DNA from: an uncultured Verrucomicrobiae bacterium
GTDB lineage: Bacteria; Verrucomicrobiota; Verrucomicrobiia; Chthoniobacterales; UBA10450
Length of the DNA: 64,000 nt
NCBI GenBank assembly: GCA_963815455.1
Contig: CAWFGO010000001.1
Location: forward strand, 512,001 to 576,000
Direction of reading: 5' to 3'
The position numbers and the translations under genes are program-made. The notes beneath the pieces are model-generated. The model was not told where the DNA came from. It made no database searches and worked only from the letters and a program-made list of their open reading frames with translations. Of this stretch, positions 2,239 through 32,461 are shown one piece after another (within the stretch, counting starts at the first letter, position 1; every line of letters begins with the position of its first letter).

Positions 2239-4009
2239 TTACCCCAGCAGATCCCCGTAGCGTTCATTCGCCACCTCCAGACTGCGCGAAAGAATTTCCG
2301 CCGGCGTGTTCAGCTTGAGAGCCTCCTCGACGAGTTGGCGGCACACCGGAATGTCGAGAGATTGCACTGCGCGTTTCACTCGCGGCACGAGCATCGCGCC
2401 GACACTCAGCTCATCGATGTCCAGACCGAGCAGGAGCGGCATTAGGGCAATGTCGCCCGCCATTTCGCCGCATACGCCCACCCAGATTTTGTTCGCGTGC
2501 GCCGCGTCGGCGATCATTTTCAATAACCGCAGCACAGCTGGGTGCGTCGGCTCGTAGAGATGCGCGATCCGCTCGTTCATGCGATCGACTGCAAGCGCGT
2601 ACTGAATCAGGTCGTTGGTTCCGATGCTAAAGAAATCCACTTCGCGGGCCAGCGCATCGGCAGAAATGGCAGCGCTTGGGATTTCAATCATCGCACCGAC
2701 TTCCGTTTTCTCGCCGATGTCGATGTTCGCTTCGCGCAATTCCTCTCGACATTCCTCCAGAATCGAGATGGCCTGCCGCAGCTCGTTCAATCCCGAAATC
2801 ATCGGGAACATGATTTTCACGTTGCCAGCCGCGCTGGCCCGCAAAATGGCGCGCAACTGGGTCTTGAAGATGTCGATGTTCTCGAGGCAAAAACGAATCG
2901 CGCGCCAGCCAAGAAACGGGTTCAGCTCGTCGCTGATGTTCACCGTTCCAGGAGCGAGCTTGTCGCCGCCGAGATCGAACGTACGAATAATGAGCGGATC
3001 GGGCCGGACACGCTCCGCCACTCTCCGGTAGACTTCGGTACTGCTCGTCTTCGGTTGGCAAAGCGCGGCGGTTCAAATAAAGAAACTCGGTGCGATAAAG
3101 GCCGATTCCTTCCGCGCCATTGGCCGCGACAGCTTCCACGTCGCCGGGGAGTTCGATATTGGCGGAAAGAACAATGTGCTTCCCATCGCGCGTGGTCGAT
3201 TTCGTCTCGCGCAGCTCCTTCAGCTTGGCCACGACCTGGACGCGACGCGATTCGACCTCGCCGTAATAAAGGAGCGTCTCCGGTGTTGGATCCAAAATGA
3301 CCAAACCCTTTGTCCCGTCGACCAGAACATGCCGCCCGGTTTCGAGCTTGGCCGTAATATCGTGCAAGCCCACAACCGCCGGAATATTCAGCGAGCGCGC
3401 AATGATCGCCGTATGCGAAGTGCGGCTGCCCAAATCGGTCGCGATGCCCAGCACGCGTTCCCGGTTCATCATCGCGGCATCCGAAGGCGTCAGGTTGTGG
3501 GCCACCAGAATATGCGGTTCGTCCAGTTCGAGAAATGCCTTCTGCGCTTTTCCCTGCAAATTGCGAATCACGCGCTTGGTTACGTCCTGGATGTCGAGCG
3601 CCCGCTCGCGCAGGTAGGGATCGTCGATCTTGCTGAGTGTTTCTGCGTAATCGGTGGCGACTTCTTGGAACACCCACTCGACATTACACCGATCCGTTTC
3701 GAGTTTGCGCAGCACTTCATCGATCAATGTGCGGTCTTCCACGACCAGAAGGTGCGCATCGAAAATGGCGGCATCCTTGGCGCCGATCGATTCGGCGATG
3801 CGTTGCTGCAGTTCCAGAATCTGCATGCGCGTCTGGATGAGCGCGGCCTCAAAGCGCGCGATTTCATCGGAAATCTGCGAAGGAGCGATCTGATGCCGGA
3901 CAACATCATCGAGATCGTCGCGGACCACATGCGCTCTGCCGCGCGCGGTTCCCGGCGAGACGCCCGCAGCCTGAAATCGAGTTTCCTGTCCGGTGTTATC
4001 CGTGCTCAT
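2239..4009 (-). CDS. ptsI: PTS enzyme I (PEP-protein phosphotransferase); one frameshift near 3037
   Basis: ORF 2684..4009 has GSRTSHTAI (phospho-His) and GIGLYRTEFLYL. ORF 2239..3021 has RTFDLGGDK, NPFLGWRAIR, FFSIGTNDLIQY and GVCGEMAG. Confidence 0.93.
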
Positions 4010-4056
4010 TCGCCTGCGAGAGTACAGTAGATGTCAACTCGCACGGGGTTTTAGAC

Positions 4057-4364
<308 letters not shown>

Positions 4365-12874: not shown

Positions 12875-13913
12875 ATGAAGATCGCCTTGGACGCCATGGG
12901 CGGCGATTTTGGCCCGCCGAGTCTCGTGGCCGGCGCCGTAATGGCGCTGCGTGAATACCACCATATTCACAAGCTTTTCCTGGTCGGAGATACCGCCCAG
13001 ATCGAGGCCGAACTCAAGAAGCAGCAATGTAACGATGGCCGGATCGACATCGTCCATTCAACCCAGGTCGTGGATATGAGCGATCGCGCCTGGTCGGCCG
13101 TTCGCCGAAAAAAAGATTCATCCGTAAGCCGGGCAGTCGATCTCGTTAAGCGCGGCGACGCGGATGCAATCGTCAGCGCCGGACACACCGGCGCCGCGGT
13201 CGCAGCGAGCATGATCAAGTTGCGCACGCTGGAGGGAATCGATCGTCCAGGAATCGCGGCGGTTCTTCCCACTGAAACGAATGTCTTTGTTCTGATCGAT
13301 GCCGGGGCAAACATCGATGCACGCCCCGAGCATCTCGTTCAATATGCGTTCATGGGAACGGTTTATTCGCGACATGTGCTCGGGTACAAGAATCCAACGG
13401 TCGGCCTGGTCTCACTCGGCGAGGAAGACGTGAAAGGCAACGAGATGACGAAGGAAGTTTTCAAAATGTTAAAGAAAAGCTCCCTCAACTTTGTCGGTAA
13501 CATCGAGGGACGCCATCTGTTCGAGGATCCGGTTGAAGTCGTGGTCTGTGACGGTTTCGTGGGCAATGTAATCCTTAAGACATGCGAATCGATCTCGGTG
13601 GCGATTTTCAAATGGCTCAAGCACGAATTGACTGCGCACTCCTCTGCGCAAGGCCGGCGCGTTTCTGGCCAAAGACGCGTTCCTGACGATCAAGGACAAA
13701 ACAAATTACGAGGAATACGGCGGGAGCCCCCTTCTGGGGGTAAACGGAATCTGCATTATCGCGCACGGCTCCAGTACGCCCCTAGCCATCAAGAATGCAT
13801 TACGTGTCGCGGCCGAATCGATTGAACAGCAGGTCAATCCGCATATCGTCGAGGAGATTCGCCGTTACAATGAAAAAGCAGCCCCGCTCGAGCCCGCGCT
13901 CCCGGTCCGATAA
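12875..13913 (+). CDS. plsX: Phosphate acyltransferase PlsX; frameshift near 13640
   Basis: IALDAMGGD, VSAGHTGA, LIDAGAN and VVVCDGFVGN; the C-terminus (YEEYGGSPLLGVNG..IIAHGSS) is in another frame. Confidence 0.93.
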
Positions 13914-19914: not shown

Positions 19915-20622
19915 GTAGTAAGAAAGTACAACTTTAAGAGCTGAGTCTGAAATATGAAAGTGGCTGTAGGTTAAGATCTTCAGCCAAGAGAGTTTCAGTT
20001 ATCAAAGAATCTCTGGTCCGGCAGCAGCCGGACCGGAACAGATTGATCAAGCTACAAAGAGCGCATCATGGATGCCTTGGTGCCAATAGGCGATGAAGGA
20101 CGTGGTAAGCTGCGATAAGTCACGGAGAGCGGCAAACACGCTTTGACCCGTGAATTTCCGAATGGGATAACCTGAGCGAGGTAATACTTGCTCGAGTTCC
20201 TGTGAATACATAGCAGGAACATCGCGAAACCCGGTGAAGTGAAACATCTCAGTAACCGGAGGAACAGAAATCGAAAGAGATTCCGTCAGTAGTGGCGAGC
20301 GAAAGCGGAAGAGACCAAACCGGTCAATTTATTGACCGGGGTTGTAGGAGCCCGACGTGGTAGTGCAACGATTAGATGAAGCGAATGGAAAATCGCTCCA
20401 TAGAGGGTGACAGGCCCGTAATCGAAAATCCGCGCACGCCTAGGGATTTCCTGAGTAATACGATGCACGTGAAACTTCGTATGAATCTGCGCCGACCACG
20501 GCGTAAGTCTAAATACTAATTGGCGACCGATAGTGAACCAGTACCGCGAGGGAAAGGTGAAAAGAACCGCTGTGAGCGGAGTGAAATAGTACCTGAAATG
20601 ATGTGCTTACAAGGTGTCAAAG

Positions 20623-20909
20623 CCCAGCACTTTCTGATTCCATGGAAGACATGTTTTACGTCTACGTGCTAAAGAATCCGAAAAGTGCGGAGCTATACTA
20701 CGGCTTTAGTAGCAACCTGCGGCAGCGCTTCGATAGTGCATCAAAAGATGTCGAAGCATGCTGGATGGAAGTTAGTCTACTATGAAGCGTATGCCGATGA
20801 GCAGGATGCTCGCGATCGCGAACGGATGCTTAAGGATTACGGAGCCGCGAGAGGTCATCTCAAGAAACGTATAGCGCGAAGCACTTCCAAGGGGCCGGAA
20901 AGTGCTGGG
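20623..20909 (+). mobile_element. Intervening sequence in 23S helix 25, bounded by a 26-bp imperfect stem
   Basis: Arms cccagcactttctgattccatggaag (20623-20648) and cttccaaggggccggaaagtgctggg (20884-20909) replace the short helix between CTTACAAG and GCGTGCCTTTTG. Confidence 0.88.
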
Positions 20910-20912
20910 TGA
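20651..20912 (+). CDS. GIY-YIG nuclease family protein inside the 23S intervening sequence; one extra base near 20735
   Basis: MFYVYVLKNPKSAELYYGFSSNLRQRF, then in the next frame HQKMSKHAGWKLVYYEAYADEQDARDRERMLK...; both Tyr motifs and the conserved Arg, His and Glu are present. Confidence 0.85.
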
Positions 20913-22033
20913 TGGCGTGCCTTTTGCTTAATGAGTCTGCGAGTTATTATCAGTGGCGAGCCTAAGGCGTTCTGCGCTGGAGGCGAAGCGAAAGCGAGTC
21001 CGAAATGGGCGAACATAGTCGCTGGTAGTAGACCCGAAGCCGAGGTGATCTACCCATGAGCAGGATGAAGATTGCTTAACCGCAATTGAAGGACCGAACC
21101 CGTGAAGGTTGAAAATTTCTGGGATGACTTGTGGGTAGGAGCGAAAGACTAATCAAACCCCGTGATAGCTGGTTCTCCCCGAAATAGCTTGAGGGCTAGC
21201 CTCGTGTGCTGACCTGCGGAGGTAGAGCACTGGATGAACTAGGGCCCATACCAGGGTACCGAACTCAATCAAACTCCGAATGCCGCAGGGTGTAACACGG
21301 GAGTCAGTGCGTGAGGGATAAGCTTCACGCGCGAGAGGCAAACATGCCAGACCAGCAGCTAAGGTGCCCAAATACCGTTCAGTGGAAAGGATGTGAGGTT
21401 GCATAGACAGTGAGGATGTTGGCTTAGAGGCAGCCATCATTTAAACAGTGCGTAATAGCTGACTCATCGAGCGATCTCGCGCCGATAATGATTGGCGATA
21501 AGCGGTATACCGAAGCTCTGGAAGACATTTTGGTTCGCCAGAATGGATTGGTAGGGGAGCGTTCTGAATGCATCGAAGCAGAAGGGGAACCTACTGTGGA
21601 GCGTTCAGAAGTGAGAATGCAGACATGAGTAGCGATAAGCCAGGTTAAATTCCTGGCCGCCGTAAACCCAAGGTTTCCTGGGGAAGGTTCGTCCTCCCAG
21701 GGTTAGTCGGGACCTAAGTCGAGGCCGAAGGGCGTAGACGATGGAAAGCAGGTTCAATATTCCTGCACCGGCTGTGGTTAAGCTTGGTTGTGACATATCA
21801 GTGGAGACGGGCCGTCGATTGAAAGTGGCGGTCTGCTCGCAAGAGCAAGGACGTGGAGGCCTCGGCTGAAGCGGATCTGTTAAAACTTGAATCAAGAAAA
21901 GCACTTAAATGTTCCCACGGTTGCCCGTACCGTAATCCGACACAGGTGGGTGAGTAGAGTATACTCAGGCGCGTGAGTGAAACCTCGTTAAGGAACTCGG
22001 CAATCTAGCCCCGTAACTTCGGAAGAAGGGGTG

Positions 22034-22196
22034 CCCCGCTGCATTTTGCGAGAGCGCAAAACAACAGTGAAATTATATTGCCAATCCCAAATTACAAGAT
22101 CCAGTAAATCTGAGACGAAGGCTAATGTTTCGGGATCTTGGAGTTTGGCTATTGGGATTCATGCATTTTGAGCCACTGCTCTAAAATGCAGCGGGG
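22034..22196 (+). other. Non-coding expansion or intervening sequence in 23S helix 63
   Basis: Perfect 14-bp closing stem ccccgctgcatttt / aaaatgcagcgggg enclosing an AT-rich, 7-nt periodic inner stem; 163 nt in total. Confidence 0.8.
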
Positions 22197-22341
22197 TCGC
22201 AGTGAAATGGGTCAACCGACTGTTTAACAAAAACACAGCACTCTGCTAAGTCGTTAAGACGACGTATAGGGTGTGACACGTGACCAATGCGGAAAGATTA
22301 TGGTAAGACGTTAGCCGCAAGGCGAAGCGTTGAACCGAAGT

Positions 22342-22421
<80 letters not shown>

Positions 22422-22929
22422 GTGTAACGAGTTGACCGCTGTCTCAACGAGGAGCTCAGCGAAGTTGTAATGGCGGTGAAGATGCCGCCTACCCGCAGTA
22501 GGACGGAAAGACCCTATGCACCTTTACTACACGCTGTTACTGTTGTTTCGGTTTCGATGCTTAGCGTAAGTGGAAGGCTACGAAGCGGCCCTTTTGGGGG
22601 TCGCAGAGCCGCCAATGAAACACCACCCTTCGGTACTGGAATAACTAACCTTTGCCCGTATATCCGGGAAAGGGACACTGGCAGCCGGCTAGTTTTACTG
22701 GGGCGGTATCCTCCCAAAGAGTAACGGAGGAGTACGAAGGTTGGCTCAACCTGGTTGGCAATCAGGTGACGAGTATATGGATATAAGCCAGCTTAACTGT
22801 GAGAGACACACCTCGAGCAGATACGAAAGTAGGTCCAAGTGATCCGGTGGTTGAATGTGGAATTGCCATCGCTCAACGGACAAAAGGTACGCTAGGGATA
22901 ACAGGCTGATCCTGCCCAAGAGCTCATAT

Positions 22930-22996
<67 letters not shown>

Positions 22997-23011
22997 CCGG
23001 CTGTTCGCCGG

Positions 23012-23045
<34 letters not shown>

Positions 23046-23186
23046 CGAGACAGTTCGGTCCTTATCCACTGTGGGCGCAGGAGATTTGAGGGGTTCAGAC
23101 CTTAGTACGAGAGGACCGGGTCTGACGAACCGCTGGTGTTCCAGTTGTCGTGTCAACGGCAGTGCTGGGTAGCTATGTTCGGAAAG

Positions 23187-23217
<31 letters not shown>

Positions 23218-23600
23218 CTATCCCAAGATGAGATCTCCCTGAAGGGTCGTGGTAGACCACCACGTTGATAGGTCTCCGGTGTAAGTGCAGTAATGTATTC
23301 AGCTGAGAGATACTAATAACCCGTTCGGCTTGATCTTTTACTTTTCTGTTAACGCTGCGTTCCGGTGAAAATCGGGACAGCAGAATGGGAAATGAAAGAT
23401 CTCAAACAAAACGAAGCCTTAAGCGTGCGACTTTCCAAAAACTCCTGTATGTAGATATCAGAGAACAGCGACAGAATTTTGAGAAGATGACGTGATGTTT
23501 GATCTAAATGAATGCGCGCAATCGCGAGCGAAATAAATCTGACATCGTCCATCAAACCTCAAACATGCCAGAAGCGAGCGGCGAAGCATTCGCGGTTCGC

Positions 23601-23717
23601 TTCTGGTGATAATAGCGCAGTGGCACCACCCGTTCCCATTCCGAACACGGCAGTGAAACGCTGCAGCCCCGATGGTAGTACGGCGATAGGCTGTGCGAGA
23701 GTAGGACGTCGCCAGAA
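23601..23717 (+). rRNA. rrf: 5S ribosomal RNA
   Basis: TTCTGGTG...CCACCCGTTCCCATTCCGAACACGGCAGTGAAAC...CCGATGGTAGT...GAGAGTAGG...GCCAGAA. Confidence 0.97.
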
Positions 23718-30830: not shown

Positions 30831-32373
30831 TTAGAACCGGCTGCGCCGGCCTGCGCCGAGAATGCTTCCCAGAAGACCCCGAGCAATCTCACGGCCCACC
30901 GAAGAACTCGCCGCGCGCACGACACTTTTCATCGCGCTGGTCGCCATGGAATCGTGGACGGCTCCGCGCGGACCGATCGTCGGTTTGAAAATAGAACCTG
31001 CTGTTCCGAGGGCCTTTTCCAAAATCGATCCTCCGCCGCCCTCCTGCGGCGCACCTGCCGCTGGCGTTTGCGGAGTTCCCGCCGCCTCGACCCTTTCGCC
31101 GGCTCGTGCCTGCAACTTCTCGTAAGCCGATTCTCGATCGACGGCTTTTTCGTAGTGTCCGGCCAGGACTGATGAGTCGATGATTTGCTTGCGCTGCTGG
31201 GGTGTAATCGCTCCGACCTGACTGTGCGGCGGAACAATCTTCGCCCGCTCGACAATCTGTGGCGTGCCGTTCTCCTCCAACATCGAGACCAGCGCTTCAC
31301 CGACTGCGAGCTCGGTAATGACCGTCTCCACCTTGAACTTTGGGTTCTGTCGAAAAGTCTGCGCCGCAGCCGTCACTGCTTTTTGGTCGCGCGGCGTGAA
31401 TGCGCGCAAGGCGTGTTGGGCGCGATTGCCCAGCTGCCCGAGGACAACATCGGGAATATCGAGCGGATTCTGACTAACGAAGTAAACGCCAACGCCTTTG
31501 GAACGAATCAGCCGCACCATTTGTTCGATCTTCTGTTCGACTGACGGCGCGATATCGGTGAAGAGCAGATGCGCCTCATCGAAAAAGAATACCAGCGTCG
31601 GCTTTTCCGGGTCGCCGATCTCGGGCAACCGCTCGAATAATTCCGAAAGCATCCAAAGCAGGAACGTGGCGTAAACCTTGGGCGACTGTTGCATCAACTT
31701 GTCCGCCGCCAGAATATTGATCACGCCTTTCCCACCTTGGGTTTGGATCAAGTCCTCCAGGTTCAACGCCGGCTCGCCGAAAAATTTGTCTGCGCCCTGC
31801 GATTCCAGGGCCAGCAGGTTACGCTGGATCGCGCCGGCGCTAGCAGTGGAGACATTGCCAAACTCGGTTTTGAACTGGTCAGCATTGTCCGCGACATACT
31901 GCAAGCATCGAGCGCAGGTCTTTAAGATCGAGAAGGAGCAACCCGTTTTCGTCTGCGATCTTAAACACCATGTTTAGCACACCCTCCTGCGTGTCATTCA
32001 ATTCGAGCAATCGGCCCAGCAAAAGCGGCCCCATCTCGGAAATCGTCGCGCGAACAGGATGACCTTGCTCGCCGAATACATCCCAGAAAACGACCGGGCA
32101 TGCCTCCGGTTTGAAATCGTCGATCTTTAGCTCTTTGGCCCGCTCAACGATTTTCGGATTATTTCCGCCGGGTTGACTTAATCCGGCCAGATCGCCTTTG
32201 ACATCCGCCATGAAAACGGGAACGCCCCGCGCGCTAAAAGCCTCGGCCAACGTTTGCAACGTCACGGTCTTGCCGGTGCCGGTCGCTCCGGCAATCAAGC
32301 CGTGCCGATTGGCCATTTTCGGCAGCAAAAAGATCCGGTCTTTTGATTGGGCAATAAAAATTGGATCGCTCAT
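30831..32373 (-). CDS. HerA-like ATPase, DUF853/YjgR family; frameshift near 31905
   Basis: [40 protein letters not shown] and [15 protein letters not shown]. Confidence 0.9.
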
Positions 32374-32461
32374 AAATGAATCTTATGGAGGAACGACCGC
32401 AGCATGCCCGCCGTAGCGGGTGTCCTCCCCAATCTAGCGGGACGCGACGGAGCGCATCTCC

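Follow-up and report, generated by a model that had tools for sequence, protein, structure and literature searches.

A nuclease gene inside helix 25 of the 23S rRNA gene

The window, i.e., the whole stretch of 64,000 nucleotides analyzed here, corresponds to C1:512001-576000 of the source assembly G000 (7 contigs, 3.62 Mb) and contains a 23S rRNA gene (Table 1) that is single-copy in G000, with one BLAST match in the assembly. The 5S rRNA at 23602-23717 is the sole other match at Rfam gathering score in the window. No 16S rRNA gene was found within 20 kb upstream of the 23S rRNA gene; the 16S rRNA gene of G000 (G000:C5:165177-166832) is on a different contig and unlinked to the 23S-5S pair (20045-23717).

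Alignment of the 23S rRNA gene to the Rfam model is interrupted within the hairpin of helix 25, where a long unaligned insert follows position 583 of the model. This fixed the site of an insert that an earlier note had placed in this helix from the letters of the window alone. Empty sites were taken from the genomes of 29 relatives, with both flanks obtained for 27, and read AAAGCC-GGGCAACC-GGTGATGG or AAAGCCC-GCAA-GGGTGATGG. Metagenome contigs with an empty site join position 20625 to position 20907 via GCAA or TTCG. Measured against an empty GCCC-GCAA-GGGT site, the insert spans 20626-20906 (281 nt); the slightly wider cassette limits in Table 1 include the CCC and GGG that also accompany copies outside rRNA. 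The earlier description of a helix replaced by about 290 nt is thus right as to helix 25 and too broad in extent, as only the hairpin tip (GCAA loop or GGGCAACC) is exchanged for the insert and the rest of the helix is kept. An intron reading of the insert was rejected because no intron family reached the Rfam gathering score anywhere in the window.

A sense-strand open reading frame for a GIY-YIG nuclease takes up 262 of the 281-287 nt of the insert, in agreement with the non-intron, nuclease-encoding insert that the earlier note had described. An alternative ATG lies at 20642, and no Shine-Dalgarno-like signal was evident on inspection of the sequence upstream of the start. The conserved helix-25 3' strand, identical in empty sites, supplies both the last sense codon (GGG) and the TGA stop codon. 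PF01541 is matched by both halves of the broken ORF, with 25.6 bits by the N-terminal half (cut-off 22.6) and with 15.6 bits, below the cut-off, by the C-terminal half. The reference-guided read-through product (P0001) has 86 aa. Invariant columns of the family include Y3, Y5, Y17, G18, R26, H30, and E57; we take the GIY-type and YIG-type tyrosines, the glycine, the arginine, and the glutamate among the motif residues to be catalytic. The C-terminal ...ESAG is invariant among homologues, yet encoded by an arm of the closing stem.

The predicted structure model (pLDDT 78) has strands at residues 2-8, 15-20, and 40-47 and helices at residues 23-32 and 50-64, which matches the beta-beta-alpha-beta-alpha fold of the GIY-YIG superfamily, while residues 76-86 are predicted to be disordered (pLDDT < 50). 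The nearest folds are the UPF0213 protein 1ZG2, Slx1, HIGLE, and the catalytic domain of I-TevI (1LN0), with a best E-value of 3.4e-3; no fold in the PDB matched the model at E ≤ 0.001, and a sequence search of the PDB returned no match at E ≤ 1. Profile, conserved motif residues, and predicted fold together place the protein in the GIY-YIG superfamily, as an 86-aa bare catalytic domain without a DNA-binding domain.

The single frameshift noticed earlier in an ORF of about 86 aa was borne out, and it results from one extra base. This base is unique to the window; the other 48 aligned copies (49 rows) have 6 nt at this place. An assembly or sequencing indel is a plausible origin, given that two other genes of the window, plsX and a HerA-like gene, contain frameshifts as well. 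The plsX gene changes frame near position 13650 (about 13600-13700), and the HerA-like helicase gene is split between 31879-32382 and 30831-31973, with the frame change in 31879-31973; both are either assembly indels or pseudogenes. Completeness of the genome is 89.98% although it comprises only 7 contigs. Ten other cassette copies, on short-read metagenome contigs, are broken too, at other places. If the frameshift is real, G000 would be without an intact nuclease of the cassette family; its six other matches to the nuclease profile each score below 36 bits.

Such frameshifts might also suggest that the locus itself is an assembly or annotation artefact, arising from chimeric assembly of an rRNA contig or from a fortuitous ORF within an otherwise ordinary, non-coding intervening sequence (IVS). 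Read data are compatible with this suspicion in that no sequencing run confirmed the insert: reads of four runs over 20300-21300 covered only rRNA flanks, derived from many soil organisms, and included empty-site joints, with depth 0 over 20640-20877 in all four. A run search gave no carrier of the insert (best share 0.57). An artefact is nonetheless hardly credible, as the same insert occupies the same site in 52 independent loci with both flanks and in genome G472, and the ORF is conserved with a dN/dS of 0.11.

Table 1 Features of the insert-bearing 23S rRNA gene and the end-matched insert in the 16S rRNA gene
Feature	Position	Strand	Evidence or remark
23S rRNA gene	20045..23337	+	Rfam RF02541, 2702.9 bits, model 1-2925, complete bacterial LSU
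Closing stem, 5' arm (terminal inverted repeat)	20622..20648	+	MFE pairs; covariation
Hairpin cassette CCCAGCAC...GTGCTGGG	20623..20909	+	Relatives' empty sites; ends common to ectopic copies
GIY-YIG nuclease ORF, 86 codons read through, +1 frameshift	20651..20912	+	Pfam PF01541; homologues
Frameshift site	20732..20738	+	7 nt in the window vs 6 nt (two codons) in homologues
Closing stem, 3' arm	20884..20910	+	MFE pairs; covariation; also codes C-terminal ...ESAG
Stop codon TGA	20910..20912	+	From conserved helix-25 3' strand GGGTGATGG, present in empty sites
Second 23S hairpin insert, ORF-less, ends GCATTTTG...CTAAAATGC	22041..22192	+	cmscan; relatives
16S hairpin insert, 102 nt, ORF-less	G000:C5:165396-165496 (L151 597-697; outside the window)		End match

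The closing stem

The two ends of the cassette pair with each other and extend helix 25 by a long imperfect stem of about 25 pairs, G-U included, close to the 26 pairs counted in the earlier note. The insert folds with a minimum free energy of -124.9 kcal/mol (z -4.04), a stability that was not reached by any of 100 shuffled sequences. Covariation was analyzed with the structure taken from the window and with an alignment made without fitting to that structure. Pairing is retained in 93.8% of cells across 49 distinct sequences, both sides have changed in 15 of 28 pairs, and none of 500 shuffles reached any of the five measures. In a slid control, with partners moved by 1-3 columns, pairing dropped to just 39-46% of cells. 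The stem arms of loci L087, L088, L091, and L097, for instance, differ from those of the window at matching positions. Covariation hence supports the closing stem. A separate hairpin for each arm was also considered and dropped; the 10-nt palindrome in the 5' arm of the window is missing from most other copies.

Conservation of the nuclease family

Searches with P0001 returned 268 relatives at E ≤ 1e-3, mostly of 84-89 aa and on short contigs. The best 120 of these 268 are 72-95% identical to the query, 81-102 aa long, and all contain PF01541; most of them are on contigs shorter than 3 kb, as fragments of rRNA genes would be. A metagenome scan with the nuclease yielded 80 loci. The ORF is located between the same two 23S flanks in 52 loci, including L097-L100, whose flanks are just 67-80% identical. 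In a Saccharibacteria locus (L003), a GIY-YIG ORF follows immediately after the same 23S position. A single-protein scan of genome contigs gave distant relatives only (42-51% identity), the family profile found just distant paralogues in a sample of 400 genomes of the phylum (best 69 bits), and the protein atlas returned merely generic GIY-YIG clusters.

The ORF is intact (open over at least 80 aa) in 45 of the 56 copies from the window, G472, and L041-L094. Breaks in the other 11 are scattered and comprise single-base indels, stop codons, and one 5' deletion. Codons 2-72 of 34 unique intact ORFs gave a median dN/dS of 0.11 (median dN 0.115, median dS 1.04); 416 of 561 pairs were usable, all of these were below 0.5, and dS was saturated in 137 pairs. 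Judged by these substitution rates, the nuclease family is under purifying selection, and the general decay (dN/dS near 1) that the earlier note had named as a possible objection did not materialize. Low dN/dS together with mostly open copies would imply that the protein is made and needed by something.

Occurrence among relatives

The order sample comprised 151 genomes including G000, and 55 of the others matched an 801-nt query across the site. The insert aligned in only one of these 55 (G472 of family f8, 83% identity). Both flanks were present in nine genomes of the same family. The site is empty in eight of them, and the ninth (G022) has an unrelated ORF-less insert of about 146 nt at the helix-25 tip (L133, G022:C1). 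A search for the insert DNA in 40 relatives gave no match.

In a tree of the 23S flanks (699 columns), insert-bearing and empty rows are interleaved; parsimony requires 10 changes, of which the starred branches force at least 3. A single clade for the 31 family-type insert-bearing rows was rejected (p-AU 1.8e-5). Testing a clade defined by the insert tree against the flanks revealed no significant conflict (p-AU 0.32); therefore, transfer between 23S backgrounds is not demonstrated, and loss alone could account for part of the patchiness. The patchy and incongruent distribution expected in the earlier note was thus recovered as far as patchiness and the rejected single clade are concerned, and not as a conflict between insert and flanks. 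Metagenomic rRNA contigs can be chimeras, and the metagenome loci are uninformative on the frequency of the cassette because they were fetched via the ORF.

Further inserts and copies outside rRNA

Both 12-nt ends of the cassette recur at exactly one further place in G000, with about 0.4 such places expected by chance. This place is in the 16S rRNA gene (Table 1), where an element with a perfect 21-bp stem stands in place of a 4-nt loop, at a hairpin tip around SSU model positions 205-215 that we take to be helix 10 (h10). At its two ends, 13 and 14 nt match the 23S cassette without a difference; the interior is unrelated. A 16S match was obtained in 107 other genomes of the order, none of which aligned across the element. 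In relatives, the empty 16S tip has the sequence TCAAAGCCG-GGG[C/T]AACC-TGGCG at 8 of 11 loci listed, among them those of the same-family genomes G087 and G017. It is nearly alike in sequence to the empty helix-25 tip, TCAAAGCC-GGGCAACC-GGTGATGG, which is found in four of the eight empty same-family 23S sites, the other four having other tips. Judging from the empty sites of relatives, a near-identical tip would have been replaced in both the 16S and the 23S rRNA gene of G000. No further match to either 21-22-nt target was present in G000 within 2 errors. Recurrence of the cassette ends at a near-identical 16S hairpin indicates site-specific insertion, and the common target tip may be taken as the strongest sign that insertion is specific for a sequence or structure. 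Elsewhere in G000, four 12-mers with one mismatch to the 5' end of the cassette are spaced exactly 126 nt apart (G000:C1:118738-119127) and probably belong to an unrelated tandem repeat.

The 23S rRNA gene of the window contains a second insert, in which 139 unaligned nt replace 2 nt of the model (cmscan) at about LSU model position 1763. It lies at the tip of the hairpin at 1750-1775, presumably helix 63, and has inverted ends of its own that differ from those of the helix-25 cassette. Four other genomes (G021, G087, G478, and G472) have 3-5 nt at this site. At the same tip, loci L056 (1998-2261) and L067 (4759-5016) harbor GIY-YIG ORFs of 87 and 85 aa, respectively, bounded by other ends; these ORFs match PF01541 with 44-45 bits and are 51% identical to P0002, an intact homologue of the window nuclease. 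L056 thereby carries two cassettes within a single 23S rRNA gene, and L048 retains a 159-nt remnant of a second-tip cassette, including the start of the ORF. The second insert of the window is probably part of the same phenomenon as the helix-25 cassette.

Whole cassettes with both arms also occur without rRNA, on seven contigs (L073, L074, L078, L079, L082, L083, and L084). They are 72-73% identical to the window cassette at the nucleotide level, with identity extending from GCCCAGCAC to GCTGGGTGAC. These ectopic copies keep the GCCC...GGGTGAC ends and have no homology to rRNA beyond a few bases; they are located just upstream of a gene for a DUF255 thioredoxin-like protein, with two different left neighbours. 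Six of the seven have an intact ORF. In the insert tree, they form one clade nested among rRNA-borne copies (support of the enclosing group 85/81), in a rooting that depends on the divergent rRNA-borne rows.

These observations bear on the proposal that the insert is old and vertically inherited, that its protein serves the host in rRNA maturation or in the handling of single-stranded DNA (as SsnA does in transformation), and that the patchiness arose by repeated loss. Strong purifying selection would be expected under this proposal, most copies come from one bacterial family, a conflict between insert and flank trees was not shown (p-AU 0.32), and the Ssn nucleases, to which we return below, have themselves been proposed to be a domesticated element in the available text of PMC11893778. 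Against this stand the whole cassettes outside rRNA, the 16S insert with the same ends that 0 of 107 other order genomes align across, and related cassettes with other ends at other hairpin tips. One in five copies is broken, and the single-clade hypothesis was rejected. We therefore regard a host-serving, purely vertical insert as rather improbable.

Relation to known systems

RNase III removes the intervening sequences of 23S rRNA helices 25 and 45, and the rRNA is not religated. Most classical IVSs have a length of about 100-200 nt and are either non-coding or encode a four-helix-bundle protein (23S_rRNA_IVP). The cassette resembles them in its position at the tip of helix 25, which it replaces with a long stem formed by complementary ends, and in its sporadic occurrence among close relatives, but differs in that its loop is filled by a nuclease gene. 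RNase III cleavage of helix-25 IVSs without religation is also cited in PMC11270868 (J Bacteriol 2024), a study of the rRNA insertions of the CPR (Patescibacteria), which contain LAGLIDADG and GIY-YIG proteins. As the available text of that study has it, all GIY-YIG proteins of the CPR are in insertions unlike either intron class, are sparse over several sites, and seem to be outside homing (PMC11270868). The possible novelty of kind raised in the earlier note thus falls away, as rRNA insertions that are not introns and contain GIY-YIG ORFs have already been published from the CPR.

Like these CPR inserts, the cassette combines an rRNA site, the lack of a match to group I or II introns, and a small GIY-YIG ORF, and both are found at stem-loop tops and scattered over several rRNA sites. 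The host of the cassette, however, is probably not a member of the CPR, to judge from its genome of 3.6 Mb and those of its relatives (1.4-6 Mb). The available account in PMC11270868 mentions neither terminal inverted repeats nor ORF-less partners sharing their ends, and neither ectopic copies nor a common target, all of which apply to the cassette. In the full-text literature within our coverage, which excludes subscription journals, we found no such cassettes outside the CPR, no link between Ssn and rRNA, and no account of inverted ends or gene-less partners for such cassettes. Beyond the CPR precedent, the novel aspects would be the group of the host, an ORF-less partner with matching ends, and the target that the two have in common.

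By analogy, the nearest biochemical model for the cassette nuclease is the Ssn family (cd10448), whose members are site-specific nucleases of single-stranded DNA (ssDNA) and are flanked by hairpin repeats termed NTS/SRM (PMC11893778, Nat Commun 2025). According to the available parts of that paper, Ssn proteins, which are single-domain GIY-YIG proteins of 94 aa, bind ssDNA and cleave it beside the hairpin repeats on either side of their own genes, and the layout of repeat, gene, and repeat is likened there to an insertion sequence. Both Ssn (~90 aa) and the window nuclease are single-domain GIY-YIG proteins of less than 150 aa, and in both systems the gene is bracketed by hairpin-forming inverted sequence. 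In the Ssn system as described in the available text, however, each repeat forms its own hairpin and occurs in hundreds of copies, whereas the arms of the cassette pair across the gene and occur at 2 loci per genome. The published SRM motif had no match in 20401-21100 and 20 matches in the genome, without enrichment (for contig C2, 5 vs 6-10 in shuffled sequence). The term "rRNA" is absent from the main text of PMC11893778, as far as this was available.

Endonucleases of the I-TevI type share with the cassette the GIY-YIG catalytic fold and a selfish lifestyle at a fixed site. They differ in being borne by introns and in having a linker and a DNA-binding domain, while the cassette has neither an intron nor such a domain. 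Elements of the IS200/IS605 and REP/RAYT groups are hairpin-ended and are moved as ssDNA by HUH transposases. Hairpin-forming ends, ORF-less partners with the same ends, and small size are common to these elements and the cassette, but these elements rely on an HUH Y1 transposase, in place of which the cassette has a GIY-YIG nuclease. We know of no strand-transfer chemistry for GIY-YIG proteins. Both element groups are named in the discussion of the Ssn paper (PMC11893778), in the text available.

Possible mechanism and implications

Taken together, these findings describe the insert as a cassette with hairpin ends and a gene for a minimal GIY-YIG nuclease, and make it likely to be a mobile DNA element with a specific target site. 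It is tempting to go further and to propose, tentatively, that bacterial rRNA intervening sequences might have been left behind by a type of mobile DNA not described so far, in which a cassette with hairpin ends is moved by a minimal, Ssn-like nuclease of the GIY-YIG type. This nuclease would read one DNA hairpin tip (GGGCAACC closed by GCC/GG), swap in the hairpin of the cassette, and mobilize gene-less partners with the same ends. We infer that the nuclease would recognize and cut the particular hairpin tip in DNA, perhaps in a single-stranded or extruded state, as Ssn nucleases do, and that the cut tip would then be exchanged for the cassette's own hairpin. The window copy, if truly broken, would be immobile along with its 16S partner.

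The earlier note favored homing. In the classical form of this process, a 23S allele without the insert would be cut through both strands by the GIY-YIG protein, and an allele with the insert would serve as the template for repair. Homing would account for the site-specific insertion point, which is also filled in divergent 23S rRNA genes (L097-L100 and the Saccharibacteria locus L003), for the filled look-alike target in the 16S rRNA gene, and for the commonness of broken copies (11 of 56), which resembles a cycle of gain, decay, and loss. Double-strand homing into IVS-free alleles fits poorly, however, because the 86-aa protein is catalytic domain only, the genome has a single rRNA operon, and the interior of the partner is unrelated. 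The resemblance to TIGR01453 is limited to profile positions 4-36 of 215 (15.9 bits vs a cut-off of 56.05), with one 23S rRNA gene per genome homing would require incoming DNA, and the 16S element, having only its ends in common with the 23S cassette, is not a gene-conversion copy. Intergenic copies moreover lack rRNA homology past a few bases, and the authors of PMC11270868, in the text available, placed the GIY-YIG inserts of the CPR outside homing. Classical homing thus appears unlikely.

Rather than duplex recognition of the I-TevI type, we think that recognition of a DNA hairpin or cruciform by the cassette nuclease is likelier because the protein is a bare catalytic domain. This view is supported by the closest shapes to its predicted fold, which include the structure-specific nuclease Slx1, and by the single-domain GIY-YIG proteins of the Ssn family, which cut ssDNA beside hairpin repeats. 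At the RNA level, we infer that the long stem would be excised from the transcript by RNase III, whose gene is present in G000, or else tolerated at the ribosome surface; either way, insertion would be cheap for the host. All three insertion sites presumably carry expansion segments in eukaryotic rRNAs, so that tolerance without excision is also possible.

Ever since rRNA intervening sequences were discovered, their origin and scattered occurrence have awaited an explanation. A mobile cassette that targets one hairpin sequence could explain the origin of some of these sequences. As a model for bench tests, the locus provides a nuclease of about 86 residues, a defined pair of ends, a natural gene-less partner, and a defined target hairpin of about 20 nt that both rRNA genes contain. 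Cleavage of this hairpin as ssDNA by the nuclease would tie the Ssn family to a transposon-like lifestyle; if such cutting is genuine, a compact site-specific nuclease with a known target would be gained. In practice, 16S and 23S rRNA genes become longer through such inserts (the 16S rRNA gene by 102 nt in the present case), which can interfere with amplicon surveys and with binning based on rRNA.

Two further kinds of rRNA insert were observed in the metagenome loci. Between the positions equivalent to window LSU 2323 and 2337, the divergent cassette-bearing 23S rRNA genes of L088 and L089 contain an insertion of about 1.5 kb that may be an intron. The 23S rRNA gene of L004, a Planctomycetota MAG, harbors two GIY-YIG ORFs (about 2064-2327 and 4001-4270), each surrounded by a strong stem and at positions that differ from the helix-25 site.
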